A stretch of 17,256 nucleotides of DNA from a virus (Duplodnaviria > Heunggongvirae > Uroviricota > Caudoviricetes), in the IMG/VR virus record IMGVR_UViG_2778261160_000003, positions 1-17,256 of that record. One strand, 5' to 3'. The position numbers and the translations under genes are program-made. The notes beneath the pieces are model-generated. The model saw only the letters and a program-made list of their open reading frames with translations. It searched no databases and had not been told where the DNA came from. Below are positions 1,054 through 17,256 of the stretch, one piece after another. How positions within the stretch are numbered: the stretch's first letter is position 1; each line of letters opens with the position of its first letter.

Positions 1054-1078
1054 AAAAAATGCCCTCCAATAGAGAGCA

Positions 1079-1106
1079 TTTTTACTGTATGTATAACCAG
1101 TGTCAA
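1079..1106 (-). promoter_or_regulatory. Putative int promoter with a LexA-box-like CTG-N10-CAG in the spacer
   Basis: Read on the minus strand: TTGACA (revcomp of 1101-1106), 16-17 nt spacer, TAAAAA(T). The spacer contains CTGGTTATACATACAG (plus strand CTGTATGTATAACCAG, 1085-1100). It is 30-50 bp upstream of the int ATG. Confidence 0.35.
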
Positions 1107-1241
1107 TGTATGAAATCCTGCGACCATACATCTCACTGAAGCCATAATGAAGTAGGCTATTCTTTTTGCTATGTGATCATGTAACTTTTGCGGTTAACCT
1201 GTGGCTCATTTTTATTTTAGGCGCAGATATAAAAGCAAAAG

Positions 1242-1433
1242 TTATCGTGAGTTTTTAGTACAGATTTTTTTGGATTTACTAATAGTTCCATCATTGCAAA
1301 CGAATTTGCCATCAGAGGTACAGTGAGAAACACCTCCCTTTTTCCCTGAGCAGGGATAATTTCTAGCATAGGTAGCTAGTGGGTTTAATAACAAAGAACA
1401 TGACAAAACCACAAAAAATACCTTACCAAGCAT
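1242..1433 (-). CDS. Small hypothetical protein with predicted signal peptide and four cysteines
   Basis: 63-codon ORF whose ATG is preceded by GGGAGGAAATT. Hydrophobic N-terminus [20 protein letters not shown], then a Lys/Cys-containing tail. AT-rich. Sits between cI and int on the same strand. Confidence 0.45.
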
Positions 1434-1448
1434 AATTTCCTCCCGGTA

Positions 1449-2018
1449 CTATTTAACATACTTGACTGTTAAACTTATAATTTTACCAATTATTTCAATG
1501 TCTTCTATCTTACATTCGAAGGCTCTGTTTCCACCCTCGACGAAGATTCTTCCACCGGGTAAACGAGTAATGTCACGGATCGTTATTTCGCCATCAATAC
1601 TTATTACCCATTTACCATCACGTATATCATCAAATTCCTTATCACAAATAAATTCAGAATTATTATCTGTGATTACAAAAAGATTCTTGAATGCCGACGG
1701 TAGAAATTCTCTATCGAAAATATAAAAACCGTCTTCACACAAGGCCCCATCAGATAATACATATTTAGCAACTTCCATAGTATTTGTATTACCTGAAGTT
1801 TGCTTTGAACCATGCCCGGTTGTGAGCCAATTAAGCGAGGTGCCTGTTTCAAGGGCGCACTGGATTACCCATTCTGCTGGGAATGAGTCACGCATGTAGC
1901 GTGTGGCGAGTGTACTTTTAGAGATTCCTAAATGATCGCACAACGCCTGTCGAGTCTTGAATCCATAAGCTTCTACCATGCGCTCTATGGCGCCTCGTCC
2001 GCCTTTCTCCAAATTCAT
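1449..2018 (-). CDS. cI: CI-type immunity repressor (phage 186 CI-like)
   Basis: 189 codons from the ATG at revcomp 2016-2018, with GGAG about 5 nt upstream; the ORF track extends to a GTG at 2024. N-terminal HTH-like segment EAYGFKTRQALCDHLGISKSTLATRY. Size and position (between int and the divergent early operon) match 186 CI from memory. Confidence 0.75.
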   Translation of the reverse strand: MNLEKGGRGAIERMVEAYGFKTRQALCDHLGISKSTLATRYMRDSFPAEWVIQCALETGTSLNWLTTGHGSKQTSGNTNTMEVAKYVLSDGALCEDGFYIFDREFLPSAFKNLFVITDNNSEFICDKEFDDIRDGKWVISIDGEITIRDITRLPGGRIFVEGGNRAFECKIEDIEIIGKIISLTVKYVK

Positions 2019-2042
2019 GGTCACTCCAAGTGAACTTTTATC

Positions 2043-2071
2043 TTGACGATTTCACTGTGCGATCGTATGTT
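2043..2071 (+). promoter_or_regulatory. Putative rightward early (lytic) promoter
   Basis: TTGACG (2043-2048), 17-nt spacer, TATGTT (2066-2071), about 70 bp upstream of the first rightward ORF. Flanked by inverted hexamers GTGAAC (2030-2035) and GTTCAC (2078-2083), which could be operator half-sites. Confidence 0.4.
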
Positions 2072-2143
2072 TATGGTGTTCACAAAATACAAACGATCCG
2101 TATTCGTCCTGATTAATCATCATTAAACGAGGAATGTTGCATC

Positions 2144-2365
2144 ATGAGACCTAACATTTCAATCACTCTTACCACGCCTCATGTGACTATTGAACGCTAT
2201 AGCGAGCTGACAGGGCTATCCATCGATACCATCAATGACATGTTGGCTGATGGACGCCTTATCCGTCACCGTCTGCGCAAAGATAAAAAACGCGAAAAAG
2301 TGATGATCAACATAGCAGCAATGACCGTTGATGCGCTTTCAGAATGCAATCTAAACCTTAATTAG
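2144..2365 (+). CDS. Apl/Cox-type excisionase and transcriptional regulator (HTH)
   Basis: 73-codon first ORF of the rightward operon, with AGGAA upstream. HTH-like segment [26 protein letters not shown]. Position equivalent to P2 cox / 186 apl. Confidence 0.65.
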
Positions 2366-2397
2366 TTCGATTCTGAAATACATCAGAGGCATTGACC

Positions 2398-2907
2398 ATG
2401 TTTGATTACCAAGTTTCCAAACATCCACATTTTGATGAAGCCTGTCGTGCATTTGCACTGCGCCACAATCTGGTGCAACTGGCAGAACGTGCAGGCATGA
2501 ATGTGCAGATTCTGCGGAACAAGCTGAACCCAGCTCAGCCTCATTTATTAACCGCACCAGAAATCTGGCTGCTTACCGATCTGACTGAAGATTCAACGCT
2601 GGTAGATGGTTTTCTGGCACAGATTCATTGTCTGCCATGTGTACCGATTAATGAGGTGGCAAAAGAGAAACTGCCACATTACGTCATGAGTGCAACCGCA
2701 GAGATCGGGCGTGTTGCTGCAGGTACGGTGTCTGGCGATGTAAAAACCTGTGCCGGTCGTCGTGATGCTATCAGCAGCATTAACTCTGTAACACGACTGA
2801 TGGCGCTGGCGGCTGTTTCATTGCAGGCCCGTTTACAGGCTAATCCTGCGATGGCGAGTGCAGTTGATACCGTGACTGGCCTCGGTGCTTCATTTGGTTT
2901 GCTGTGA
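2398..2907 (+). CDS. cII: CII-type lysogeny-establishment regulator (phage 186 CII-like)
   Basis: 169 codons from ATG 2398, with AGAGG 8 nt upstream; the ORF track starts at TTG 2392. N-terminus [19 protein letters not shown] and length agree with 186 CII as I recall it. Confidence 0.7.
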
Positions 2908-2914
2908 GGTGCTT

Positions 2915-3115
2915 ATGCTGACGAAAGAACCATCATTTGCATCGCTGCTGGTTAAACAAAGCCCGGCAATGCATTACGGTCACGGCTGGATCATGGGGGA
3001 GGATGGTAAACGCTGGCATCCGTGCCGTTCACAAGATGAATTGCTGGCAGAACTATCTACGAAAAAACGGGGGAACAAATGGCTATTGAAGGCACTGCGG
3101 CGACTGTTCCATTAA
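2915..3115 (+). CDS. Hypothetical small protein (early operon)
   Basis: ATG 2915 with GAGG a few nt upstream, 66 codons. Overlaps the next ORF by 37 nt. No recognisable motif. Confidence 0.4.
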   Translation: MLTKEPSFASLLVKQSPAMHYGHGWIMGEDGKRWHPCRSQDELLAELSTKKRGNKWLLKALRRLFH

Positions 3116-3420
3116 GCCCCGGTGAACGCCTGAATGGACTTAATCACATTGCGGAGTTAAGGGCGAAAGTTTTTGGCCTAAATATTGAGTCAGAGCTTGA
3201 GCGGTTTATTAAAGATATGCGTGATCCATGGGATATCAATAATGAACAAAATAAAAGGGCACTGGCTGCCATATTCTTTATGGCAAAAATTCCAGCTGAA
3301 CGTCATAGCATCAGCATTAATGAGCTGACCACTGACGAAAAGCGGGAGTTGATTAAAGCAATGAATCATTTTCGTGCAGTGGTGAGCTTATTTCCCAGAC
3401 GGCTAACCATGCCGAATTAA
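3079..3420 (+). CDS. Hypothetical protein (early operon)
   Basis: 113-codon ORF in the co-directional early operon. Position is that of the 186 fil/dhr-type early genes, but I cannot confirm similarity. Confidence 0.5.
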   Translation: MAIEGTAATVPLSPGERLNGLNHIAELRAKVFGLNIESELERFIKDMRDPWDINNEQNKRALAAIFFMAKIPAERHSISINELTTDEKRELIKAMNHFRAVVSLFPRRLTMPN

Positions 3421-3487
3421 CCAACTAATGAAATTAATGGCGTAAACCCGCCGGGCATCCCTTTATCTAAATTCAGGAGAATTGATT

Positions 3488-3721
3488 ATGCGTAATATTG
3501 AAACCCTCACGACTAAAACCGGACCGGATGATGCAGGGCTTAATATTTTACTGACAGAGGCTCGTCTGGAAGAACGCCGGGCAAGGGCTGAAGCAATGGC
3601 AGCTCGCCTTGATAGCCTGGCGTGTCATATCACATCCCGCCAACTAAACCACGTCGAAGCGGCAGAACTGCTGCGTGTGACTGCTGAAGCAATCCAGAAC
3701 GAAGCGCAGGAGATCCACTGA
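3488..3721 (+). CDS. Hypothetical protein (early operon)
   Basis: ATG 3488 with AGGAGA 7 nt upstream, 77 codons; the ORF track starts at TTG 3482. Its stop overlaps the next start (TGATG). Confidence 0.5.
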   Translation: MRNIETLTTKTGPDDAGLNILLTEARLEERRARAEAMAARLDSLACHITSRQLNHVEAAELLRVTAEAIQNEAQEIH

Positions 3722-3948
3722 TGGCTGATGCAATGGATCTCGTACAGCAGCGCGTTGAAGAAGAACGCCAGCGCCACATCCGTGCTGCCCGTGCCAAAAC
3801 ACCGGGCGTGTCTCGCGTGCTTTGCATAGAGTGTGAAGCGCCAATTCCGCCAGCACGCCGCCGCGCCATTCCGGGAGTGCAGCTTTGCATTACCTGTCAG
3901 GAAATCGCAGAGCTGAAAGGTAAACATTACAACGGAGGTGCTGTATGA
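3721..3948 (+). CDS. TraR/DksA-family C4 zinc-finger protein
   Basis: 75 codons with CIECEAPIPPARRRAIPGVQLCITCQE (CxxC-N17-CxxC), the pattern of phage/plasmid TraR-like proteins. Start overlaps the upstream stop. Confidence 0.7.
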   Translation: MADAMDLVQQRVEEERQRHIRAARAKTPGVSRVLCIECEAPIPPARRRAIPGVQLCITCQEIAELKGKHYNGGAV

Positions 3949-4802
3949 GCACCATCCTGAAATGGGCGGGTAATAAAACCGCCATTATGCCAGAACTGAA
4001 AAAATACCTTCCTGCTGGCCCGCGACTGGTTGAACCTTTCGCGGGTTCTTGTGCTGTGATGATAGAGACGGATTACCCCAGCTATCTTGTTGCGGATATT
4101 AATCCTGATTTAATCAACCTCTATAAAAAGGTTGCTGCTGATTGCGAGGCGTTTATATCTCGTGCCAGAGCTTTATTTGAGGAAGCAAACAGGGAGGTGG
4201 CTTATTACAACATAAGGCAGGAGTTTAATTACTCCACTGAAATTACTGATTTCATGAAAGCGGTATATTTCCTGTATCTCAATCGTCATGGTTACCGTGG
4301 GTTATGTCGCTATAACAAGAGCGGGCATTTCAACATTCCCTATGGGAATTATAAAAATCCGTATTTCCCTGAAAAAGAAATTCGCAAATTTGCAGAAAAA
4401 GCCCAGCGAGCAACGTTTATCTGCGCCAGCTTTGATGAAACGCTGGCGATGTTGAAGGCGGGGGATGTGGTGTATTGCGATCCGCCTTATTACGGTACGT
4501 TTTCCGGCTATCACACTGATGGCTTCACTGAGGATGACCAGTATCACCTGGCATCCGTTCTTGAACATCGATCATCTGAAGGTCATCCGGTCATTGTTTC
4601 TAACAGTGACACATCCCTGATTCGTTCGCTGTATCGCAATTTCACTCACCACTACATCAAGGCAAAACGCAGCATCGGCGTGTCGGCTGGCAAGAGTAAA
4701 TCTGCAACAGAAATCATTGCTGTTTCCGGGGCGCGCTGCTGGGTGGGATTTGATCCTTCGCGTGGCGTAGATAGTTCTGCTGTGTACGAGGTGCGTGTAT
4801 GA
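3945..4802 (+). CDS. dam: DNA adenine (N6) methyltransferase, Dam family
   Basis: 285 codons. N-terminal KWAGNK, AdoMet-binding-like EPFAGSCAV, catalytic DPPY (CDPPYYGT). Start overlaps the upstream stop (ATGA) and its stop overlaps the A start. Confidence 0.85.
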
Positions 4803-7213
4803 GTCATGACGATATGAGCAACTCTAGCGGCTTTAACGAGGCCGCCGCATCATTTTCATGGAACGGCCCGAAAAAGGCCATTAACCCTTATCTGGACCCG
4901 GCGGAAGTTGCGCCGGAGTCTGCACTTTCAAACCTGATCACTCTGTATGCTGCCGATAACGAGCAGGAACAACTGCGCCGCGAGGCACTGAGTGAGCAGG
5001 TCTGGGAGCGTTATTTCTTTAATGAATCCCGTGATCCTGTCCAGCGCGAAATGGAGCAGGATAAGCTCATTAGCCGGGCAAAGCTGGCGCATGAGCAGCA
5101 GCGTTTTAATCCAGACATGGTCATTCTGGCTGACGTCAACGCCCAGCCTTCCCATATCAGCAAGCCGCTGATGCAACGTATTGAATACTTCAGCAGCCTG
5201 GGCAGGCCAAAGGCTTATTCCCGCTATTTGCGTGAGACGATTAAGCCATGTCTGGAACGGCTGGAGCATGTACGCGACAGTCAGCTATCCACTTCTTTTC
5301 GCTTTATGGCGAGCCATGAAGGGCTGGACGGCCTGCTGATCCTGCCTGAAATGAGTCAGGATCAGGTGAAACGCCTGTCCACCCTGGTAGCTGCGCATAT
5401 GAGCATGTGCCTTGATGCAGCTTGTGGCGATTTGTATGCCACCGATGACGTTAAGCCAGAAGAAATCCGCAAGACATGGGAAAGGGTGGCAGCAGAAACC
5501 CTGCGACTGGATGTCATCCCACCTGCGTTTGTGCAACTCCGCCGGAAAAGAAACCGCCGTAAACCCGTGCCCTATGAACTCATTCCGGGTTCGCTGGCGC
5601 GTATGTTGTGCGCCGACTGGTGGTATCGGAAATTATGGAAGATGCGTTGCGAATGGCGGGAAGAGCAGTTGCGTGCTGTCTGCCTTGTCAGCAAAAAAGC
5701 ATCTCCCTATGTCAGCTATGAAGCCGTGATGCATAAACGTGAGCAGCGCCGTAAGTCGCTGGAGTTTTTCCGTTCTCATGAACTGGTGAACGAAGACGGC
5801 GACACGCTGGACATGGAGGATGTGGTAAACGCCAGCAGCAGCAACCCTGCGCATCGCCGCAATGAGATGATGGCCTGTGTTAAAGGTCTGGAGCTTATCG
5901 CGGAAATGCGCGGTGACTGCGCCGTTTTCTACACCATCACCTGTCCGTCACGTTTCCATTCCACGCTAAATAACGGCAGGCCCAACCCGACCTGGACAAA
6001 TGCGACGGTAAGACAAAGCAGTGATTATCTGGTCGGCATGTTTGCTGCATTTCGTAAGGCAATGCACAAAGCCGGATTGCGGTGGTATGGCGTGCGGGTG
6101 GCTGAGCCGCATCATGACGGTACAGTTCACTGGCACCTGTTGTGTTTTATGCGCAAAAAAGACCGCCGCGCCATCACTGCATTACTGCGTAACTTTGCCA
6201 TCCGTGAAGACCGCGAGGAGCTGGGCAATAACACGGGGCCGCGCTTTCAGTCTGAGCTGATTAATCCGCGCAAAGGAACGCCGACAAGCTACATCGCGAA
6301 ATATATCAGTAAGAATATTGACGGGCGTGGTCTGGCTGGCGAGATCAGCAAGGAAACGGGTAAATCTCTGCGTGATAACGCTGAATACGTTAATGCCTGG
6401 GCGTCTCTGCATCGTGTTCAGCAATTCCGCTTCTTTGGCATTCCGGGGCGTCAGGCTTACCGTGAACTGCGATTGCTGGCTGGTCAGGCGGCAAGGCAGC
6501 AGGGTGACAAAAAAGCAGGTGCGCCGGTACTGGATAACCCGCGCCTTGATGCCATTCTGGCTGCTGCTGATGCTGGTTGTTTTGCCACCTATATCATGAA
6601 GCAGGGCGGCGTACTGGTTCCCCGTAAATATCACCTCATCAGAACCGCTTATGAAATCAACGAAGAGCCGACCGCCTATGGCGATCACGGTATTCGTATT
6701 TATGGCATCTGGTCACCCATTGCAGAGGGCAAGATCTGCACTCATGCAGTGAAGTGGAAAATGGTTCGTAAAGCCGTTGACGTTCAGGAGGCGGCAGCCG
6801 ACCAGGGCGCTTGCGCCCCTTGGACTCGTGGCAATAACTGTCCCCTTGCGGAAAATTTGAACCAACAGGAGAAAGATAAATCAGCTGATGGGGACACCAG
6901 AACGGACATTACCCGCATGGATGACAAGGAGTTGCACGATTACCTGCACAGTATGAGCAAAAAAGAGCGCCGGGAACTGGCAGCAAGGTTACGCCTGGTT
7001 AAGCCGAAACGGCGTAAAGACTACAAACAGCGAATTACAGATCATCAGCGACAGCAGCTCGTCTATGAACTGAAGTCCAGAGGATTTGATGGCAGCGAGA
7101 AAGAGGTCGATTTACTCCTTCGCGGTGGCAGTATTCCGTCAGGAGCAGGCCTGCGTATCTTCTATCGGAACCAGCGTTTGCGGGAAGATGATAAGTGGCG
7201 GAATCTGTATTAA
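4799..7213 (+). CDS. A: Rolling-circle replication initiator endonuclease (P2 gpA-like)
   Basis: 804 codons with an HUH-type motif TVHWHLLCF and a paired-tyrosine motif YIAKYISK (YxxxY), as in P2 A. Sits at the end of the early operon. Confidence 0.9.
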
Positions 7214-7305
7214 TTACGCGGGTTAACAATTCGTGCTCTTAATAATACCAGGCATATCAGGCTGATGAACGTAAAAAAACGTTTTACATCAGTAAGATTA
7301 TTATA

Positions 7306-7325
7306 TACTGTAAATATAAACAGTG
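7306..7325 (+). promoter_or_regulatory. LexA (SOS) box TACTGTAAATATAAACAGTG
   Basis: Perfect CTGT-N8-ACAG with an A/T-rich spacer at 7308-7323, about 40 bp upstream of the ORF starting at 7366. Confidence 0.6.
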
Positions 7326-7365
7326 GTTATGTATACAGTATTGCTTTGGTGTCATAGGAGGAAAG

Positions 7366-7554
7366 ATGCAGGACTATTTTTTGGAGTCTTTGAAGCTCCA
7401 GCGCATTGATTTTTTTCTTAAGCTTGTAGCGGCTAGTGAGTGTAGTGATGAAGAGAAGGGGCTGGCCCTGCAGTGGGTTTCTGAACTGACAGATGAACTC
7501 ATGGCAAAAATCAGAACCCACGAATACAACCGCTCAATGGATGTCATCAGCTGA
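7366..7554 (+). CDS. Small hypothetical protein, first gene of the putative SOS-controlled operon (Tum-position antirepressor candidate)
   Basis: 62 codons, strong RBS AGGAGG 4 nt before the ATG, downstream of the LexA box. In phage 186 the equivalent LexA-controlled position holds the tum antirepressor; sequence similarity not verified. Confidence 0.5.
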   Translation: MQDYFLESLKLQRIDFFLKLVAASECSDEEKGLALQWVSELTDELMAKIRTHEYNRSMDVIS

Positions 7555-7564
7555 GGTGACTTTT

Positions 7565-7798
7565 ATGCGCATTGAAATAATGATCGATAAAGAGCAAAAG
7601 ATTAGCCAGTCTACACTGGACGCCCTTGAATCCGAGCTTTACCGCAATCTGCGCCCCCTGTATCCCAAAACGGTAATTCGTATCCGCAAAGGTAGCTCTA
7701 ACGGTGTGGAACTGACCGGACTGCAACTGGACGAAGAAAGAAAACAAGTGATGAAAATTATGCAGAAGGTGTGGGAAGACGACAGCTGGCTGCATTAA
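7565..7798 (+). CDS. dinI: DinI-family protein
   Basis: 77 codons from ATG 7565, with GAGGTG 5 nt upstream. Begins MRIEIMIDKEQ and ends QKVWEDDSWLH, mirroring E. coli DinI (MRIEVTIAK ... ETWESADDW) in pattern and size. Confidence 0.7.
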   Translation: MRIEIMIDKEQKISQSTLDALESELYRNLRPLYPKTVIRIRKGSSNGVELTGLQLDEERKQVMKIMQKVWEDDSWLH

Positions 7799-7922
7799 GA
7801 AACGTTGCTGGCGTCTGAACTTGTTTCTGGCGTCAGCAAGGTTGAACAACGAGCCCTTGCGAGGCGTTAGCTCTGTAGTGCATGTCTATGCCGCATGAGA
7901 TCGCATGATCGTTTGAGGATCG

Positions 7923-7948
7923 TTTTTGCTAAGGCCCGCCAGAACTGG
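7923..7948 (+). terminator. Rho-independent terminator after the dinI-like gene
   Basis: GGCCCGCCAG / CTGGCGGGC stem with a short loop, followed by TTTTG. Confidence 0.5.
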
Positions 7949-8212
7949 CGGGCTTTTGCGTAGATCATGCAGGTGCATGAAAACCACTACATAAAGCGGG
8001 CAGGCGTGGCGGGGATACGAGCGCGCGCTGAAAAGGTTTAGCTAAATTTTTGTCGATAGGTGGTTTTAGTTGTTATACAAAAGTGTCACTGGTTTTGTTT
8101 TGAGCATTTGTGGTGCTAAAAATATTTTTTTTGGTTCAAAATTACCTTAAAAAGGTTTTTTTGGTGTATGATTGTTTGAAAAGTGGTTCGGTTTTGCCAT
8201 AAGGGTGGTTAG

Positions 8213-9295
8213 ATGATAAACGTTACAAACGAAATGCTCATTGATGTTGTCAGTGATGCTCTTACCGGGAAGAGGGAAAGTCTCCTCATGCGGTTGCGGA
8301 TTATGGCAAAAAAACTAAAAAAAGAATCTCCTGAATTAGCGGGTAAATTAGAAGATTTACTTATTAATACGGGTGGCGCAATTGCAGTCGAAAGGGCTAA
8401 TCCAGTTGTTCCTAAAATAACACCTGTTGATGCGGATACAAGACAAAAGCTGCTAGTTGAAACATATCCTGTGGTCATTGATGTTGAACCTGTTTGGCCA
8501 ACAAAAACTGATGTTCAACTGAATCGATTTGTGGCTGAGTGGGAAATGAAAGAACGCCTTTATAAAGAAGGGTTGCATCCCTCCAAATCTCTTCTTATGG
8601 GAGGACCACCCGGTGTGGGGAAGACTTTGGCTGCAAAGTGGCTCGCTTTTAAACTCGATATGCCATTGTTAACATTAGATCTCGCAAGTGTAATGAGTAG
8701 CTACTTGGGGAAAACGGGTAATAATATTAAGGCAGTCCTCAATTATGCTTCGTCATTCCCTTGTGTACTGCTTCTTGACGAATTTGATGCGATTGCTAAA
8801 AAAAGGGATGATGCAACAGATGTTGGAGAACTAAAAAGATTAGTTACAGTATTATTGCAAGCAATTGATGAATGGCCAAATACGTCTGTTCTTATAGCAG
8901 CAACTAACCATGCGGAGCTGCTTGATCCTGCTGCATGGAGAAGATTCGATCGAGTTATTGATTTTGAATATCCAACACAAGACCTAATGAGAAGATATCT
9001 CTGTTCTAAAAATATTGGAGATAGCTTATCGTACTATATTGCTACAAAACTCGAAAAAGTTTCATATGCAGTTCTTGAGAGAGCTATAAATCAAGCTAAA
9101 AGAAATGCCATTATAGAAGATATTCCTTTAAGTTCAGCTTTAATTGATGAGTTGTTAGATGGCGTGTCACTTGATGATGTTATAAAAAACATGTCAAACA
9201 ACAATGTATCACAAAGAAAAATCGCTTTAGATTTGGGGATTTCAAGGTCACAAGTACGTAAGGTTTTGACGGTTGAGGATGAAGACAATGAATGA
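8213..9295 (+). CDS. AAA+ ATPase with C-terminal HTH-like tail (cargo gene 1)
   Basis: 360 codons. Walker A GPPGVGKT (Lys codon 8621-8623), Walker B VLLLDEFD (8777-8782), sensor-1 IAATNH, second-region-of-homology-like AAWRRFDRV. C-terminal SQRKIALDLGISRSQVRKVL resembles a helix-turn-helix. AT-rich. Confidence 0.85.
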   Translation: MINVTNEMLIDVVSDALTGKRESLLMRLRIMAKKLKKESPELAGKLEDLLINTGGAIAVERANPVVPKITPVDADTRQKLLVETYPVVIDVEPVWPTKTDVQLNRFVAEWEMKERLYKEGLHPSKSLLMGGPPGVGKTLAAKWLAFKLDMPLLTLDLASVMSSYLGKTGNNIKAVLNYASSFPCVLLLDEFDAIAKKRDDATDVGELKRLVTVLLQAIDEWPNTSVLIAATNHAELLDPAAWRRFDRVIDFEYPTQDLMRRYLCSKNIGDSLSYYIATKLEKVSYAVLERAINQAKRNAIIEDIPLSSALIDELLDGVSLDDVIKNMSNNNVSQRKIALDLGISRSQVRKVLTVEDEDNE

Positions 9296-11480
9296 TAAAA
9301 ATATGCTTCTTGGCTATGGTGAAACACTAACTAACCCTGTTAAACTTAACAGAGGTGGAGGTGAAAAGAATAAACCTTACTCTTATTCAGAAAATAAACC
9401 AGTGATATCTGCTCAACTGGAAGAGTTGATTGAGGAAATTAATACCCTTCCATTGTTAGCAATGCCTGAAGGTAAGGCTGTAGCAAAATTTGTTTTGCAT
9501 CCGGCATTCTTAGCAAAAAGTTATTTTCCAGTAAGTCTTTTTGAGCGATTTTCCCTAGAAAGCATAGGCAGTAAGGCTGTAAAAGTAAAACCTAGAAAAG
9601 ATATTAAAAAAAGAGGGCGAAAAGAGGAATACACTACAGCGTGTATTTATGTTTCTGGCAAAAAAGAAAGTTTTCAATCATTCTTAGACTCTGTAAATCA
9701 AGATACCCTAACGAAAGGGCAGCAAAATGATTTTGTCACCTTAGAAAATATTTCAATACTGGAAGTTTCAGATAAAGTAAAAACGATTAATAGCAATGAA
9801 GTTATGAGTATTGAGGTCGCCTTACATACTCCTGATACAAGTTCCTCTATTGTCGATAGTTTTGAAGTTTTTGCTTCGCAAAATGGTGCTGTTATAGATA
9901 AGGCAAGAAGTATAAAAGTTAAGGGGCTAACCTTTATGCCTATTAAGGCTAGTAAAGATGTAGCTTTAAAAGTTGCAGAGTTTTCATTTCTCAGGACTTT
10001 GAGAGAACTTCCTGAATTAAGGCTAAGTGAGCCTGTTATATCACGTTCTGTGATTCAAACATCTAACCTTAGTTTACCATCTGAAGGAGCGGTAAACCCA
10101 CACATAAAGGTTGCCATATTCGATGGTGGATTGGGGATCGATGATTTCAATCCTTGGGTAACAGAGTACACTTTCAACGGTAATGCTAGTACTAATGCAA
10201 AACTTCTTTCTCATGGACAGGATGTCACCTCTACTGTGTTATTTGGTGTTCTTGGCTCTGAAACGGAAAAATTAAGTGTTCCTTATTGTAATATTGACCA
10301 TTATCGTGTACTGGATTCCAATGTTAATAACTCAGATGTCGATCTTTTTGACGTTCTGATCCGTATTAAAAGTGTATTAGAACAAAAAAAATATGATTAT
10401 ATCAATCTGAGCTTAGGACCTAGATTACCTGTTGATGACGATGACGTGCATGTGTGGACCTCAACTCTTGAGGAGATACTTGCATCAGGAGAAACACTTT
10501 GTACTGTCGCGGTTGGAAATGATGGTCAGCTGCCTGCCAAGTTAAATCGAATTCAACCACCTGCTGATTTAGTTAATGGTCTGTCAGTAGGTGCAGCAAC
10601 CTCTTTATCTGATAGTTGGGAAAGATGTTCTTACAGTTGTATTGGTCCTGGACGAAGCCCTGGCTTTGTGAAGCCTGATGGAGTTGCATTTGGAGGACAT
10701 TCTGATGAGCCATTCCAGGTATACAGCCCTATGGTTAATGGTCTTGCCCGCACTGCGGGGACTAGCTTTTCTGCTCCATTAGTCCTGAGGCAAGCAATCG
10801 CGTTAAGTGCTTCTCTAAATTACAACATTACACCACTTACGGCTAAAGCTCTGCTTATACATCATGCGGAGAGCAATAATATCAATCGTGCTGAAGTTGG
10901 TTGGGGACGATTTCCTCATGATCTTAGTGAAGTAATATTTTGTGATGATGATGAAGTTAAAGTTATATATCAAGGTACTTTAAAACCATCACAACACATG
11001 CGAGCACCTATTCCGTTTCCAGATGTACCTATGCGTGGATGTGTAAATTTAAGAGCGACATTCTGTTTTTCCAGTCCTGTTGATGCGGAACATCCTTTGA
11101 ATTATACAAGAAGCGGTCTAGAAGTAACCATGAGAAAAGGTGTTTCAGATAGTTCCGGGTTAACGTTTCCTCTTTTTAATCTAAAAAATGTTTATGCAGA
11201 TGAAAATGAGCAACGTGTTGATGCACATAAATGGGAGACTACGTTAAGAAGTGAACACAAATTTAAACCGAATGAGCTGACAAACCCATGCTTTGATATT
11301 ATCTACTATGGTAGAGACTGTGGTATGCCTATTGATGTTGACGAGTTAGAAGAACTACCATATGTTCTTGTTGTGACTTTATCTGCTGAAGAAATGCCGG
11401 ATTTATATAACCTAATTAGGCAGAAATATCAAACCTTACAGCCTATCCAAGTTCAACAGCAAATTATGTTACGTACTTAA
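9288..11480 (+). CDS. Subtilisin-like serine protease, S8 family, no signal peptide (cargo gene 2)
   Basis: 730 codons from ATG 9288; alternative ATG at 9279, ORF track starts at TTG 9273. Start overlaps the ATPase stop as ATGAATGA. Catalytic motifs in canonical order: Asp in VAIFDGG (10122-10124), His in SHGQDV (10212-10214), Asn in AVGNDG (10518-10520), Ser in GTSFSAP (10764-10766). N-terminus is hydrophilic. Confidence 0.85.
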   Translation: MNDKNMLLGYGETLTNPVKLNRGGGEKNKPYSYSENKPVISAQLEELIEEINTLPLLAMPEGKAVAKFVLHPAFLAKSYFPVSLFERFSLESIGSKAVKVKPRKDIKKRGRKEEYTTACIYVSGKKESFQSFLDSVNQDTLTKGQQNDFVTLENISILEVSDKVKTINSNEVMSIEVALHTPDTSSSIVDSFEVFASQNGAVIDKARSIKVKGLTFMPIKASKDVALKVAEFSFLRTLRELPELRLSEPVISRSVIQTSNLSLPSEGAVNPHIKVAIFDGGLGIDDFNPWVTEYTFNGNASTNAKLLSHGQDVTSTVLFGVLGSETEKLSVPYCNIDHYRVLDSNVNNSDVDLFDVLIRIKSVLEQKKYDYINLSLGPRLPVDDDDVHVWTSTLEEILASGETLCTVAVGNDGQLPAKLNRIQPPADLVNGLSVGAATSLSDSWERCSYSCIGPGRSPGFVKPDGVAFGGHSDEPFQVYSPMVNGLARTAGTSFSAPLVLRQAIALSASLNYNITPLTAKALLIHHAESNNINRAEVGWGRFPHDLSEVIFCDDDEVKVIYQGTLKPSQHMRAPIPFPDVPMRGCVNLRATFCFSSPVDAEHPLNYTRSGLEVTMRKGVSDSSGLTFPLFNLKNVYADENEQRVDAHKWETTLRSEHKFKPNELTNPCFDIIYYGRDCGMPIDVDELEELPYVLVVTLSAEEMPDLYNLIRQKYQTLQPIQVQQQIMLRT

Positions 11481-11485
11481 CAATG

Positions 11486-11509
11486 TGGAGGGGTTCCCCC
11501 TCCTTTATT
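11486..11509 (+). terminator. Rho-independent terminator after the cargo cassette
   Basis: GGAGGGG - TTC - CCCCTCC hairpin followed by TTTATT, 6 nt after the protease stop codon. Confidence 0.5.
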
Positions 11510-11518
11510 AAGCTTTAT

Positions 11519-12133
11519 CTATGTTGATTGTGGGTCATCGTTTATTAAGTTATATTTTTCAAAATGGATAATATTAATTCCTAACCATTCATTAAATTCC
11601 TGTAATCGTTTTTGTAAAGGCATTAATTCATTTCGAACAAACACTCGACTCGCCTTCTCTACATCTCCAAATCCTCCAACATTACTTGGCATAATCCCCA
11701 TCATTTGCGGCGGCACACGGTGTGCCGCCATCATGTCGTCCCGGCTCACGTTCTTGATATTCAGAAACTCATCCTTCGCCGCGACTTCTGACAACGGGAT
11801 GATCTGAAGCCCGTCCTTTTTGCCGTTAGGCGAGTACATAAACAGGTTGCGGAAGTTGCCAGGGCCTTTGGCGCTTTTCATCGCATTGCGGAGGTTGTTC
11901 ACATCCTCCTGGTTCTGCGCGGCATCGGTCATGTACATGATGAAGCCTGCATGACTGCCGTTAATATAATACTTCCGGCGGAACAGCGTGGCGGACTCGT
12001 TGAGCAGGGCTGACGGAATGGCAGAAAGATAACCTGGCAGGCCGTAGATCTCCTGGTTGATGTCAGGTTCCATCAGATGAAAAATGCTGCCTTTCGTGAA
12101 CTGATACGGCTGGGTTGTCATACCGTATTGCAC
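11519..12133 (-). pseudogene. Q: Portal protein (P2 Q-like) C-terminal fragment
   Basis: 204-codon minus-strand ORF with portal-like sequence, in the position and orientation of P2 Q. Far shorter than an intact portal; its 5' part is replaced by tail tube sequence on the opposite strand. Confidence 0.6.
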
Positions 12134-12558
12134 AAACCAGTAGGTATCCAGGTCTAACCCGCGTCGGGTGTATTTTGCCAGTGGATGTGGATCTGGGGCT
12201 TGATGACAGTGCGCTGGACACAGAATTTTCCATTGGTGGTACTGAATTGCTGCTGTTTAAGCAGATGGGCAAAGCCACGGTGGATGGCATCCAGTTGCGC
12301 TTTACCGGCTCTATCCAGCGTGACGATACCGGGGAAGTGCAGGCCGTGGAGCTTGTGGTGCGTGGACGTCACAAAGAAGTGGATTCCGGTGAGTGGAAGA
12401 CGGGCGAAAGCAACACCACCAAAGTGACCAGTACCAACAGCTACGCGAAGCTGACCATCAATGGTGAGGTGCTCTATGAAGTGGACCTTATCAACATGGT
12501 GGAAATTGTGGACGGTGTGGACCTGATGGAAGCGCACCGCAACGCCCTCGGCCTCTGA
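12115..12558 (+). pseudogene. FII: Major tail tube protein (P2 FII-like) C-terminal fragment
   Basis: ORF contains PVDVDLGLDDSALDTEF ... RFTGSIQRDDTGE ... INMVEIVDGVDLMEAHRNALGL, matching my memory of the P2 FII C-terminal half. Recognisable similarity probably begins near 12170. No sheath or upstream tail genes are present. Confidence 0.6.
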
Positions 12559-12612
12559 TGTATCTGAACGGCGCGGGATTCCGCGCCAGAACCCAATTTA
12601 CAGGACAACAAA

Positions 12613-12915
12613 ATGAGCGATAAGCAGACTGAAAAGACCATTCAACTGGATACCCCTATCAAGCGCGGTAAAACAGAAATTACCGAAATTGTGCTGCGTA
12701 AACCGCAGTCCGGTGCGCTGCGCGGTACACGCCTGCAGGCCATTATGGATATGGATGTGAACGCGATGATGACCGTGATCCCCCGCATTTCCAGTCCGGC
12801 ACTGACTGCACAGGAAATCGCAGAGATGGACCCGGCAGATCTCACAGCCATGTCGGTTGAGGTTGTCACTTTTTTGTTGAAGAAGTCGGTGCTTGCCGGT
12901 TTACCGACAGCCTGA
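12613..12915 (+). CDS. E: Tail assembly chaperone E (P2 gpE-like)
   Basis: 100 codons, MSDKQTEKTIQLDTPIKRGKTEITEI ... AEMDPADLTAM, immediately upstream of the tape-measure gene. Confidence 0.8.
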   Translation: MSDKQTEKTIQLDTPIKRGKTEITEIVLRKPQSGALRGTRLQAIMDMDVNAMMTVIPRISSPALTAQEIAEMDPADLTAMSVEVVTFLLKKSVLAGLPTA

Positions 12916-13049
12916 CGGTTGACGATCTGGTGGCAGATATCGCCACCATCTTTCACTGGCCGCCATCCGTTACTGACGTTATGCCGCTGACCGAAGTGCT
13001 GGAATGGCGGTATAAAGCGATTCAGAGAAGCGGGGCCAACGATGAGTGA
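12613..13049 (+). CDS. E+E' fusion product via programmed -1 ribosomal frameshift
   Basis: Slippery heptamer T TTT TTG at 12870-12876 near the end of E. The -1 frame is open from 12876 to a TGA at 13047-13049 (checked codon by codon) and overlaps the T start codon. Confidence 0.6.
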
Positions 13050-13971
13050 TAATAACCTGCGCCTGCAGGTCATTCTTAATGCGGTTGACAAACTCACCCG
13101 CCCATTCCGTGCTGCACAGGCCAGTTCGAAAGAGCTGGCTGGCGCAATCAGAAACTCCCGTGACGCATTAAAGCAACTCAATCAGGCGGGTAACAGCCTG
13201 GAAAAATTTCGCAAGCTGCAGGCCGATAACAAGAAGTTAGGCGACAGGCTGAACTATGCCAGACAGAAGGCTAATTTGCTTAGCTCTGAGCTGGAGGCGA
13301 TGGAACAACCATCACAAAGGCATCTTGTGGCTTTAGGTCGGCAAACGCTGGCAGTCCAACGCCTGGAAGAACAACAAAAATATTTGCAGAAGCAAACGGC
13401 TCTTGTGCGTGCAGAACTGTACCGGGCGGGAATTTCTGCGAAAGATGATGCGGGAGCAACTGCCCGTTTAGCCCGTGAAACATCACGTTATAACCAGGAA
13501 CTTTCGAAACAAGAGGCGCGGCTGAAGCGACTGGGGGAAGCTCAGCGCAGGATGAATGCGGCGCGTGCCAGTTATGCCCGTTCGCTGGAGGTGCGTGATC
13601 GTATTGCAGGTGCCGGAGCCACCACCACGGCTGCAGGGCTGGCAATGGGCGCACCAGTGATGGCGGCAGTAAAAAGCTATACCAGCATGGAAGATGCCAT
13701 GAAAGGTGTGGCAAAGCAGGTCAATGGTCTGCGTGACGATAATGGCAACCGCACCGCGCGTTTTTACGAAATGCAGGATGCCATCAAGGCTGCCAGCGAA
13801 CAGTTGCCGATGGAAAACGGTGCTGTGGACTTTGCTGCACTGGTTGAAGGTGGTGCGCGTATGAACGTCGCAAACCCTGACGACAGCTGGGAAGACCAGA
13901 AACGTGACCTGCTGGCCTTCGCCAGTACGGCGGCAAAGGCGGCAAATGCCTGTGAAGGTCAGTGGTTTTAA
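13042..13971 (+). pseudogene. T: Tail tape measure protein (P2 gpT-like), truncated N-terminal portion
   Basis: 309-codon ORF starting MSDNNLRLQVILNAVDKL with coiled-coil-like Gln/Ala/Arg-rich sequence. Far shorter than an intact tape measure; its 3' end runs into a D-like fragment in another frame. Confidence 0.6.
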
Positions 13972-14092
13972 ACAGCCGATAGATGATGCGGAATGGACCA
14001 TTACGACTCTGACACATACCGTCAGCCCGGATAACGGTTTTACGACCAGTCTGGAGCTTGAAGTGAGGATTGATGATTTCGAAATGGAATGA
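13904..14092 (+). pseudogene. D: Tail protein D (P2 gpD-like) C-terminal fragment
   Basis: 62-codon ORF ending SGFKQPIDDAEWTITTLTHTVSPDNGFTTSLELEVRIDDFEME, directly upstream of ogr as in P2. Fragment only. Confidence 0.5.
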
Positions 14093-14182
14093 TTCTTCGC
14101 AATGGAGAACTTTTAAGTTTGCAAAATGGAATAATACGGTATCATTATTGTGAATGTAGCAAAAATGGGGAGAACTCGAAAA

Positions 14183-14401
14183 ATGATGATTTGCCCACTG
14201 TGTGGAAGTGCCGCCCATACTCGCAGCAGTTTTCAGGTATCTTCATTGACCAAAGAGCGTTACAACCAGTGCCAGAACATTAACTGCAGCCATACTTTTG
14301 TTACTCATGAAACTTTTGTTCGTTCGATTGCAACGCCTAAAGAGTCAAATCCGGTTCAGCCGCATCCAATGAAATCTGGACAGGTGGCGCTCTCTCTTTG
14401 A
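14183..14401 (+). CDS. ogr: Late-gene transcriptional activator, Ogr/Delta zinc-finger family
   Basis: 72 codons from ATG 14183; the ORF track starts at 14150. MMICPLCGSAAHTRSS ... KERYNQCQNINCSHTF closely matches P2 Ogr (MFHCPLCQHAAHARTS ... KERYHQCQNVNCSATF) from memory. Confidence 0.85.
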   Translation: MMICPLCGSAAHTRSSFQVSSLTKERYNQCQNINCSHTFVTHETFVRSIATPKESNPVQPHPMKSGQVALSL

Positions 14402-14423
14402 CGCTGCCGCCATTTTGTCGCCA
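14402..14423. repeat. Candidate attR core, 22-bp direct repeat CGCTGCCGCCATTTTGTCGCCA
   Basis: 21 of 22 identical to 19-40. Begins immediately after the ogr stop codon. Confidence 0.55.
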
Positions 14424-14481
14424 TCGTTAAAAAACAGTGCTTCTAACATCATGATTTTAAACGGTATAAATTTCAGGCAAC

Positions 14482-14524
14482 AAAAAACCCATCAACCTTG
14501 AACCGAAATGGCGGGGTTGATGGG
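14482..14524 (-). terminator. Putative ybjL rho-independent terminator
   Basis: Inverted repeat CCCATCAACC (14488-14497) / GGTTGATGGG (14515-14524) with a T-run on the minus strand (plus strand CAAAAAA at 14481-14487). The 17-nt loop is larger than typical. Confidence 0.4.
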
Positions 14525-14636
14525 CTCCACAAAATGGGGACATCAAAGAAAAGCAGTGGCATTAATTAAGACTGATGCCCTGCGGAAAAGTTCTGCGGTT
14601 GTGCAAAAAAATTTCATTTTCAGGGCAACTTCAGTT

Positions 14637-16322
14637 TTATCCTAATCCTGGCCATACCATGACGATGATTGTCCCTGCCAGCGTCAGCAGGACGTTGGCG
14701 ATTGCGTAGGTGCCCGCATAGCCCAGCGCAGGGATGTTACTGCGAGCTGTATCACTGATGATCTCCATTGCCGGCGCGCAGGTGCGTGCGCCCATCATTG
14801 CGCCGAACAACAGTGCGCGGTTCATTCGCAATACATAAGCACCGAACAAGAAACAGATAACCACGGGCACAAGACTGACAATTAATCCGGCAATCAACAT
14901 CTGACCGCCAATCGCGCCCAGGCCGTTATTAATACCGCTACCGGCGCTCAGACCAACGCCTGCCATAAACACCATCAAGCCGAACTCTTTCACCATGCTT
15001 AATGCACCTTGCGGAATGTAACCGAAGGTCGGGTGGTTAGCACGCATAAAGCCCAGCATAATTCCGGCGAATAACAACCCGGCAGCGTTCCCCATGCCGA
15101 AACTGAATGTGCTGAACTGGAAGGTGATCATCCCGATCATCAGCCCAATAACAAAGAAGGCGCAAAATGCCAGCAGGTCAGTGACCTGGCTGTGAATCGA
15201 GATAAAGCCGATGCGATCGGCGATGGTTTTTACGCGACGGGCATCACCGCTGACTTGTAAAACGTCACCTTTGTTAAGCACGACGTTGTCATCTATCGGC
15301 ATCTCAATCTGGCTACGAATGACGCGGTTAAGGAAGCAACCGTGATCGGTCAACTTCAGTTGTGCGAGACGTTTACCTACAGCGTTATGGTTTTTAACGA
15401 CCACTTCTTCAGTGACGATACGCATGTCGAGAAGGTCACGATCGAAAACTTCTTTACCGTTACGGAAGCTGGGATCGAGTCGGGCATGGGCGTCGGGATA
15501 GCCTACCAACGCTATTTCATCGCCCATTTGTAGCACGGCATCACCGTCTGGATTTGCCAGAATCCCGTTACGTCGAATACGTTCAATGTAGCAGCCGGTT
15601 TGTCGATAAATACCCAGTTCACGCAGATTTTTGCCGTCGGTCCAGGCCACCAGCTCCGGGCCGACGCGATAGGCGCGGATCACCGGTAAATAAACCTTAC
15701 GGTTGGCATCAGTGTCCAGGCCACGTTCGCGGGCGATTTGCTGGGCGCTGGTCTGTAAGTCCTGATGCTGCAATTTCGGCAAGTAACGCGCACCAACAAT
15801 CAAACTCACCAGACCGATTAAATAGGTTAAGGCATACCCGAGGCTCAGATTATCCAGTGCCAGTGAGAGCTGCCTGCTTTCCATGCCGGAATGACGCAGT
15901 GTATCGCCAGCACCGACCAGAACCGGTGTCGACGTCATAGAGCCTGCTAACATACCGGCCGTCAGGCCAATATCCCAGCCAAACAGCTTACCTAACCCTA
16001 AGGCGATCACCAGCGCACTGCCAACCATCACCAGTGCTAACATTAGGTAATTTTTCCCATCGCGAAAAAAAATGGAAAAAAAGTTCGGTCCGGCTTCGAC
16101 CCCGACGCAGAAAATAAACAGCATAAAGCCAAGATTAAGCGCATCGGTGTTAATGCTGAAATGTTGTTGGCCTAATAACAGCGATACGACTAAAACGCCA
16201 ATGGAATTACCCAGTTGGATCGAACCAAGTCGTAACTTTCCGAGACATAGCCCAAGCGCGAGGACCACAAATAATAACAGAATGTAATTCCCATTTAACA
16301 ATTCGGCGACGTTTATATTCAC
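14637..16322 (-). CDS. ybjL: Putative transport protein YbjL (AAE-family transporter)
   Basis: 561 codons; sequence [33 protein letters not shown]... recognised as E. coli YbjL. Multiple hydrophobic segments and central soluble domains. Confidence 0.9.
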
Positions 16323-16591
16323 GGAGGCTAACTTCTTGTTTACTAGTAAGCTGTTGAAAGAAATGGTAATTTACGATAATGTTTTTTACCAGAATTCAGG
16401 GCGCAGATTCATTCAGCGCACCTAAACGATAGTAAAGTAACAATATATTTTACTAGTGTAATCACATTAGGTATCAACGGCTATATGAATTGCGTTGGCC
16501 TATATTAGCATGGAATGCGAAGCGGCTTTATCTTACTGAACGCCACACTGGCGAAAAATGTGTTCGATAGACGCAGTGTCAGGAGGAACGA

Positions 16592-16969
16592 GTGAAACAT
16601 AAACAACGTTGGGCGGGGGCAATCTGCTGTTTTGTCCTCTTCATTGTGGTGTGCCTTTTTCTGGCGACGCACATGAAAGGCGCTTTTCGGGCTGCCGGGC
16701 ATCCTGAAATCGGCTTGCTATTTTTCATTCTTCCTGGAGCAGTCGCCAGCTTCTTTTCACAGCGTAGAGAAGTCCTGAAACCTCTATTTGGCGCAATGCT
16801 GGCGGCACCCTGTTCAATGCTCATTATGCGGCTGTTTTTTTCACCGACGCGCTCATTCTGGCAAGAGCTGGCATGGTTACTAAGCGCGGTGTTCTGGTGT
16901 GCGCTGGGGGCACTGTGTTTCTTATTTATCAGTAGTTTGTTTAAACCACAGCACAGAAAAAATCAGTAA
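16592..16969 (+). CDS. ybjM: Inner membrane protein YbjM
   Basis: 125 codons from GTG 16592, with AGGAGGA upstream. MKHKQRWAGAICCFVLFIVVCLF... recognised as E. coli YbjM. Divergent from ybjL. Confidence 0.85.
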   Translation: MKHKQRWAGAICCFVLFIVVCLFLATHMKGAFRAAGHPEIGLLFFILPGAVASFFSQRREVLKPLFGAMLAAPCSMLIMRLFFSPTRSFWQELAWLLSAVFWCALGALCFLFISSLFKPQHRKNQ

Positions 16970-16990
16970 AGCCCTCAACGCGAGGGCTTG
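16968..16990 (-). terminator. Hairpin between convergent ybjM and grxA, probable grxA terminator
   Basis: AAAGCCCTC - AACGC - GAGGGCTTG hairpin. The T-rich tract lies on the minus strand (plus strand AAAAAATCAGTAAA at 16956-16969). Confidence 0.4.
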
Positions 16991-16998
16991 TCAGACGA

Positions 16999-17256
16999 TC
17001 AGGCGTCCAGATTTTCTTTCACCCATGCAGCAAAATCGGTATAGCCGCCGATATGTTGCTGATCGACAAAAATCTGCGGCACGGTTTCTACGGGTTTACC
17101 TGCCTTTTGTTGTAGATCTTCTTTAGTGATCCCTTCCGCACGAATATCTACATACTGATACTGAAAATCATCGCGTTCATTGCTCAATTTCTCAGCCAGA
17201 TCTTTTGCACGCACACAGTAAGGGCAACCCGAACGACCAAAAATAACGGTTTGCAT
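16999..17256 (-). CDS. grxA: Glutaredoxin 1
   Basis: 85 codons, MQTVIFGRSGCPYCVRAKDLAEKL with the CPYC active site, recognised as E. coli GrxA. Start codon is the last three bases of the window. Confidence 0.9.
   Translation of the reverse strand: MQTVIFGRSGCPYCVRAKDLAEKLSNERDDFQYQYVDIRAEGITKEDLQQKAGKPVETVPQIFVDQQHIGGYTDFAAWVKENLDA

Follow-up and report, generated by a model that had tools for sequence, protein, structure and literature searches.

Probable recent decay of a 186/P2-like Escherichia coli prophage through two short-homology deletions that leave portal and tail tube fragments head to head

In a stretch of viral DNA of 17,256 nucleotides (the window), a minus-strand open reading frame (ORF) resembling the phage portal protein gpQ lies against a plus-strand ORF resembling the tail tube protein FII. 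This arrangement raises the question of how the two genes came to be joined and whether the element that carries them is a decaying prophage or one that has been kept for its cargo. The original prediction proposed that a single deletion had removed the morphogenetic region of a P2-like phage and that the remainder was a domesticated prophage. The comparisons described here support a deletion origin and lead to a different view of its history. In our assessment, the element has very probably undergone ordinary and recent prophage decay via two microhomology-mediated deletions, leaving inert pieces of portal and tube pseudogenes (Q′ and FII′) and a prophage that forms no particles unaided.

Judged by its gene content, the element is a defective 186/P2-like (Peduoviridae) prophage of E. 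coli situated between rcdA and ybjL. This placement comes from a BLAST search with the whole window in 5,426 complete E. coli genomes. By ORF listing and family matches, the window reads as a 186/P2-like prophage and then the host genes ybjL (14637–16322), ybjM, and grxA. The rcdA|int boundary places attL about 75 bp to the left of the window, and the right end of the prophage (attR) lies at about 14465, as the match to the empty site begins at 14466. The gene order int–CI–apl/cox–cII…A–cos–Q…D–ogr is collinear with that of P2/186-like prophages, and the retained proteins are orthologous to those of strain EC102 (NZ_CP196706.1). The prophages of EC102 and of strain 200088 (NZ_CM128592.1) are intact and share the site, gene order, and cos of the window element. 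EC102 also carries the same IetAS cargo, with IetA split, while 200088 has other cargo. Both have the full set of morphogenetic genes from Q to D, about 19 kb that the window element has lost. Compared to these two prophages, the functional-phage gene set of the window element lacks 23 annotated genes, U, and parts of Q, FII, T, and D.

The remnant measures about 14.5 kb, compared to about 33.7 kb for the full-length EC102 prophage with the same cargo at the same site. Thus, about 19.2 kb, or 57% of the length, is gone; the two deletions sum to 19,151 bp as measured on mosaic proxies, the left arm being closest to ChlosBP-23-1 and EC102 and the tail island closest to 200088. Against the EC102 locus, BLAST returned three collinear blocks (window positions 1–12181 with 98.4% identity, 12179–13955 with 93.8%, and 13944–17256 with 99.1%), separated in the reference by gaps of about 15.5 kb and 3.6 kb. 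The element itself is a mosaic: its identity to ChlosBP-23-1 is 100% over 7000–12181 but only 89–95% across int–CI–cII (1–3070), and its tail island is nearest to a third strain, 200088, which has different hotspot cargo. A separate observation concerns the host transporter YbjL, which phrog_4489 of the PHROG collection covers end to end (561/561); a mis-called prophage boundary probably let this host gene into PHROGs.

Alignment to intact relatives, which the original prediction had suggested as a check, mapped the breakpoints on EC102 and 200088, both intact at the same site. The first junction was mapped by base-level alignment, with ChlosBP-23-1 (the closest) and EC102 as references for the left side and 200088, with two differences in the island, as the closest reference for the right. 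It lies at 12179–12181, where the two sides share a 3-bp microhomology (CAG), and about 15,545 bp is missing relative to EC102. At this point Q (minus strand, codons 130–349) is joined head-to-head to FII (plus strand, from codon 46). A C-terminal fragment of Q abutting a C-terminal fragment of FII is what had been predicted, and both profile coverage and the EC102 blocks bear this out; the true position falls at the upper edge of the 12130–12180 range originally estimated for the junction.

The portal fragment, Q′, occupies 11519–12181 on the minus strand and holds codons 130–349 of 349, without the start codon, the N-terminal 129 codons, or a promoter. The ORF at 11519–12133 corresponds to the C-terminal part of the portal only, as it matches positions 109–291 of 321 in the Pfam profile PF04860 (E = 3.6e-12) and positions 146–342 of 344 in phrog_68 (E = 1e-107), and its protein is 100% identical to the EC102 portal. 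The tail tube fragment, FII′, spans 12179–12558 on the plus strand (codons 46–171 of 171) and has neither a start codon nor a promoter. The corresponding ORF, 12115–12558, resembles FII from profile position 38 only (PF04985, 38–165 of 165; E = 9e-41); this part does not differ from the complete tube of strain 200088, and the opening 22 codons are antisense portal sequence. Neither ORF, then, is full length with a start of its own. The two fragments stood as originally described, and their extents were revised: portal homology had been taken to end at 12133, which is merely the first GTG of a mechanically called ORF, and it reaches 12181, while tube homology, placed at about 12170, begins at 12179. 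For the protein of 12115–12558, the label of phrog_55 ("head closure") conflicts with the "tail tube" of Pfam and RefSeq, and tail tube has been adopted here.

The interval lost at the first junction contains 23 annotated genes in EC102. Those for head and lysis functions comprise the terminase ATPase and endonuclease subunits, scaffold, capsid, head completion, X, holin, lysozyme, LysA-like, LysB, and LysC. Those for the tail comprise R, S, V, W, J, I, H, the fiber assembly genes, an invertase pseudogene, and the sheath. All four late promoters known from P2 (P_P, P_O, P_V, and P_F) presumably fall within the same interval. The loss of terminase, capsid, lysis, baseplate, fiber, and sheath genes agrees with the original prediction, but the single deletion invoked to explain it does not, as there is a second one at 13944–13945.

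This second deletion, of about 3.6 kb, fused codon 301/302 of the tape-measure gene T out of frame to codon 318 of the late gene D. With 200088 as reference, the tape-measure match stops at 13945 and the D match starts at 13944, giving a 2-bp microhomology (AA) and 3,606 bp missing. A 12-bp overlap (13944–13955) seen in the BLAST alignment was rejected as an extension artefact; EC102 alone is a poor reference for the island (93.8% identity) and is the source of this apparent overlap. The loss comprised the C-terminal 724 codons of T, U as a whole, and codons 1–317 of D. Between the two deletions survives a promoterless island of 1.8 kb, FII′–E–E′–T′. The ORFs of the tail assembly chaperone genes E (12613–12915) and E′ (12930–13049), both on the plus strand, are intact and have no late promoter; the E protein is identical to that of 200088 and matches Pfam Phage_TAC_7, and Phage_P2_GpE was also called in the E/E′ span. 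The truncated tape measure T′ (13042–13971, plus strand) retains codons 1–301/302 of 1025, followed by eight out-of-frame residues and a stop at 13971. The D′ fragment (13944–14092, plus strand) holds the last 48–49 codons of D, out of frame with T′. A promoter scan of 3.4 kb returned two sites, compared to 3.9 expected, and none was placed to drive Q′ or FII′.

These features suggest two illegitimate deletions of the RecA-independent type between very short direct repeats, CAG and AA. The first would have run from portal codon 130 to tube codon 46, taking with it the terminase, scaffold, capsid, head completion, lysis, baseplate, fiber, and sheath genes; the second would have taken U entirely, along with the greater part of T and of D. 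The late leftovers Q′, FII′, E, E′, T′, and D′ would all be left promoterless, with Q′, FII′, and D′ also deprived of start codons. Having neither promoter nor start codon, Q′, FII′, and D′ are expected to be inert, and the late-region fragments as a group are predicted to be unexpressed. From its gene content, the element should be unable to build capsids or tails on its own, unless another prophage supplied structural genes in trans.

The rest of the prophage presents a different picture. The early, regulatory, and cargo proteins all align end to end and gap-free to their counterparts in intact relatives, in agreement with the original view that the immunity, replication, SOS-type, and cargo genes are intact. 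The integrase (1–1053, minus strand, with its stop codon at 1–3) is a full-length protein of 350 amino acids that belongs to phrog_1 and is 100% identical to that of EC102 over 350/350 residues by tblastn. The 186-type CI repressor (1449–2018, minus strand; phrog_4) is likewise full length and identical to EC102 CI over 189/189 residues. The early operon (2144–7213, plus strand) encodes apl/cox-like, cII, fil, DUF5347, DUF2732, TraR/DksA, Dam methylase, and A products, all full length; the Dam methylase (3945–4802, plus strand) matches Pfam MethyltransfD12, and the replication gene A (4799–7213, plus strand) matches Phage_GPA. At the far end of the element, the late-gene activator ogr/B (14183–14401, plus strand) is an intact gene for 72 amino acids that are 100% identical to ogr of both EC102 and 200088.

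Downstream of A lies an SOS module (7308–7798, plus strand), 100% identical to EC102 over its full length. A perfect LexA box, CTGTAAATATAAACAG (exact match, 7308–7323), stands upstream of an ORF for 62 amino acids (7366–7554) and a DinI-like, Tum-type gene (7565–7798). The arrangement resembles the SOS-controlled tum operon of 186, and it is consistent with retained SOS induction of the 186 type. The cos site follows at 7975–8029 (plus strand), upstream of the cargo. A search of the window for the literal P2 cohesive-end 19-mer with up to three mismatches gave no match, and cos was located by comparison with phage Cartapus, to whose annotated cos it is identical at 55/55 positions. Its first 13 nucleotides equal the start of the 186 cos (13/13), and the equivalent of the cohesive end, GGCGTGGCGGGGATACGAG at 8003–8021, differs from the P2 19-mer at five positions, so that the site is of P2 type. 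The proposed remnant would thus comprise an intact int, CI, apl/cox, cII, A with its origin, a LexA-controlled Tum-type antirepressor, cos, IetAS, and ogr. Since the early arm and IetAS are intact, the element could confer immunity and, if IetAS is expressed, anti-phage defense.

The cargo lies between cos and the 3′ end of Q; cos is not located between the cargo and Q. It consists of an intact AAA ATPase gene, ietA (8213–9295, plus strand; PADLOC IetA, E = 6.7e-84), and an intact S8 peptidase gene, ietS (9288–11480, plus strand; PADLOC IetS, E = 1.8e-48). The two are adjacent and co-oriented with an 8-bp overlap, as in the sequence definition of IetAS (of the type of Gao et al. 2020), and the defense activity is predicted. 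The cargo has a GC content of 38%, and its proteins are 100% identical to those of STEC308. Between the stop codons of ietS and Q there is a GC-rich, terminator-like hairpin (11487–11503) at the tQ/tW position; tQ and tW are annotated at the matching position in P2 and 186. A cos-proximal hotspot for defense genes, the tin/old locus between gpA and gpQ, has been described in P2-like phages (Rousset et al. 2022, PMC9122126; PMC13586616). IetAS sits exactly there, and phages whose core genes differ exchange it as a cassette; here, the right exchange boundary could be mapped to about 20 bp in Q, and the element that hosts it is defective.

This boundary was located by composition and by comparison with IetAS phages at another site. 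The original prediction drew attention to the AT-rich last 40 or so codons of Q (11519–11640) as a hint that the cargo had recombined within the Q 3′ end, and both points proved sound. The last 120 nucleotides of Q have a GC content of 27%, compared to 53% in the rest of Q and 51–54% in the same stretch of P2 and 186, and they still encode a recognizable portal C-terminus. The segment from 11519 to about 11659 (26% GC) forms part of the cargo cassette. Identity to IetAS phages at the ssrA site (strains 127, 600468, and TUM1887, with a different integrase and CI) is 99–100% from about 7830/7950 to 11659, and mismatches to these phages rise from three in 10800–11659 to 37 in 11660–12065, mainly with third-codon spacing. 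Because this near-identity stops at about 11659, cos, ietA, ietS, the terminator, and the Q tail move as one unit. On this evidence the right cassette boundary is inside Q at the switch from AT-rich to GC-rich sequence, within the roughly 20 bp of 11640–11660, and it is unrelated to the deletion. Another origin of the AT-rich tail, as a native feature of the portal lineage, holds only in part: GC content is lowered there also in prophages with other cargo (D9, 200088, and Cartapus). Identity to these, about 100% near 11800, drops to about 57% over 11521–11560, and by this comparison the tail is cassette-linked rather than core.

Several further observations were made on IetAS and its carriers. 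P2-like phages that sit at ssrA and differ in integrase and CI encode identical copies of IetA and IetS (WP_001513123.1 and WP_001513122.1). Only one structurally intact prophage with IetAS was seen at rcdA|ybjL, that of EC102, and its IetA is split into two ORFs of 246 and 102 amino acids (locus 28701–29783), while IetA of the window is intact. Intact IetAS in defective phages and a split IetA in the intact EC102 prophage gave rise to the idea that IetAS is incompatible with the late genes of its own phage. The idea was rejected, as strains 127 and 600468 carry identical IetA and IetS in fully intact prophages. The IetAS prophage of TUM1887 at the ssrA site (locus 29054–30111) has a deletion of its own, in which baseplate gene V is joined to sequence immediately preceding ogr; the whole tail module is lost, and the head and lysis genes are kept. 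The otherwise intact prophage of 200088 has a GmrSD-type restriction gene between S and V (locus 21575–23350), and the S–V interval may be a further cargo position in these phages.

The age and distribution of the junctions bear directly on how the remnant is to be understood. Neither junction was spanned in any of the 5,426 complete E. coli genomes, and the exact junction strings were absent from the GTDB species representatives, JGI metagenomes, and IMG/VR. An exact look-up of the T′ fusion protein led only to the NCBI draft GCA_002230265.1 (contig NLOH01000001.1, three samples) and to the Logan assembly of SRR3989635, each matching the window at 100% identity across both junctions. Compared to the intact prophage of 200088, the island shows two synonymous differences; compared to strain 127, it shows 33 synonymous, 3 nonsynonymous, and 5 intergenic differences. 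With 33 synonymous changes against 3 nonsynonymous ones, this divergence would predate inactivation and would have accumulated under purifying selection. The island has gathered no signal of relaxed selection since it was inactivated, and the dead pieces of late genes show no more decay than the genes that were kept. By these comparisons, both deletions happened recently and are restricted to a single narrow lineage.

The site itself is commonly occupied. Among the 5,426 complete genomes, ogr abuts ybjL in 1,105 and int abuts rcdA in 1,033; about 20% are therefore occupied at rcdA|ybjL, and an element with one prophage end usually has the other as well. Besides the window element, at least six independently arisen internal deletions with other breakpoints were seen there, often with other cargo (AIPR, DUF262, SieB-like, PIN, etc.). 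Truncated elements were seen in G4/9 (Q′|D), ECCWS199 (P′|FII′ and E′|D′), MB06234 (P′|H′ and T′|D′), ChlosBP-23-1 (O′|D′), and P15-25 (T′|D). STEC308 from China and Eco_23-3571 from St Kitts have one IetAS remnant in common, with IS421 added in Eco_23-3571. All these truncated variants retain int→A→cos→cargo→Q 3′ end plus ogr, in a sample that was found with a query containing the early arm and is biased towards elements keeping that arm. A literature search on P2-like elements together with ybjL found nothing.

An alternative to ordinary decay is domestication. The remnant would be kept by selection for IetAS defense and/or CI immunity, and the loss of the lethal late and lysis genes would itself have been favored. 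Whether defense genes in defective P2 elements are domesticated has been posed as an open question by a 2026 survey (PMC13586616). For the window element, we consider domestication possible but doubtful. The early and cargo ORFs are all intact, as is IetA, which is split in EC102, the fully intact phage at the site. Moreover, at least six other independently deleted elements keep the arm from int through A, cos, and cargo to the Q 3′ end together with ogr, and the remnant of STEC308 and Eco_23-3571 in China and St Kitts suggests persistence. Against this stand several observations. First, decay has not been uneven: Q′, FII′, and T′, although useless, are in as good a state as the genes that were kept, and so intactness is uninformative about selection. 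Second, both junctions are confined to one narrow lineage, which leaves too little time for selection to be visible. With undecayed fragments and private junctions, an intact early arm is what a recent deletion would give without any selection. Third, the sample of variants is biased by its early-arm query. Fourth, intact IetAS also occurs within fully intact phages, so that defense needs no decay of the phage. Domesticated prophages in the sense of Bobay et al. (2014) would show purifying selection on their retained genes after inactivation and vertical persistence across diverged strains; here, the retained genes are intact, but so are the dead fragments, and the element is found in one lineage only. 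With fragments no more decayed than the retained genes and junctions private to a narrow lineage, the claim of a domesticated prophage kept for its cargo remains doubtful.

A second possibility is that the element acts as a helper-dependent, satellite-like vehicle. SOS induction would lead to excision and replication, Ogr would transactivate a co-resident P2-like prophage, and multimers (e.g., a dimer of about 29 kb) would be packaged, spreading IetAS; sub-genomic monomer packaging by P2 is not expected. The necessary parts are present: the cos site agrees with that of a functional phage at 55/55 positions, no truncation affects int, A, or ogr, and the Tum-type gene has a LexA box upstream. 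There is also a precedent in Sp13 of O157 Sakai (PMC2669165). On the other side, the data examined, which cover the window locus, show no helper; the element has no capsid-size redirection genes of the sid/psu type; and the exact element occurs in one lineage and at its native att site only, with no sign of horizontal spread. Since neither a helper, nor hijacking genes, nor horizontal spread was seen, we rate this possibility low.

It might also be argued that the junctions are draft misjoins and that the real locus is intact, as the source is a draft (WGS) assembly. This is very improbable. The NCBI and Logan (SRR3989635) assemblies were produced separately and agree base for base at both junctions, which argues against an assembler-specific artefact. 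In addition, neither junction has a collapsible repeat, just 2–3 bp of shared sequence, and closed long-read genomes carry analogous deletions at rcdA|ybjL. Finally, that the portal and tube ORFs are intact genes of another kind, which the original prediction had named as the finding that would overturn it, has next to nothing to recommend it and is refuted by alignment: both are open over 147–204 codons with possible alternative start codons, but their proteins are 100% identical to the C-terminal parts of full-length portal and tube proteins in close relatives, and the ORF at 12115–12558 starts with 22 antisense-portal codons.

The element can also be compared to known systems. The defective prophage Sp13 of E. 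coli O157:H7 Sakai, which is P2-like and has no head or packaging genes, was nonetheless induced by mitomycin C and yielded DNase-protected packaged DNA; it is regarded as incapable of propagating alone and has kept regulatory and replication functions (Asadulghani et al. 2009, PMC2669165). The window element resembles Sp13 in being P2-like, in having lost most morphogenetic genes, and in retaining regulation and replication. It is a different element with other cargo, and it is known from sequence alone, whereas induction and packaging of Sp13 were seen experimentally. The cryptic P2 remnant of E. coli K-12 consists of ogrK plus yegZ, a pseudogene of the gpD C-terminus. That remnant likewise has ogr and a 3′ fragment of D by the attachment site, as does the window at 13944–14401, but it has lost all else, whereas the window element keeps its early arm, cos, and cargo.

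With P4-like satellites, the element shares a size in the range of 11–15 kb, a cos site, an integrase, a defense hotspot beside cos, and an activator of the Ogr/Delta type. Unlike them, it lacks hijacking genes of the sid/psu/alpA type and is a deletion derivative rather than a member of a satellite lineage. Helper-hijacking core genes of the sid, psu, delta, alpA, and epsilon type are absent: every ORF maps to a P2/186 orthologue present in EC102, and the sole related function is the element's own ogr.

Defective P2-like prophages, the cos-proximal hotspot, and IetAS have all been described already, and the locus matters little in itself because defective prophages with internal deletions are commonplace. 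Its value lies in the mapping of a defective P2-like element to the exact base, with 2–3 bp microhomologies at both junctions, and in direct evidence for exchange of a cos-proximal defense cassette with a boundary in the last 45 or so codons of the portal gene. If the element were helper-dependent after all, the many deletion elements with int, A, cos, cargo, and ogr would represent a recurrent route from phage to satellite. In any case, the truncated elements at rcdA|ybjL with their varied defense cargo provide a convenient natural series for the question of domestication posed by the recent survey (PMC13586616).
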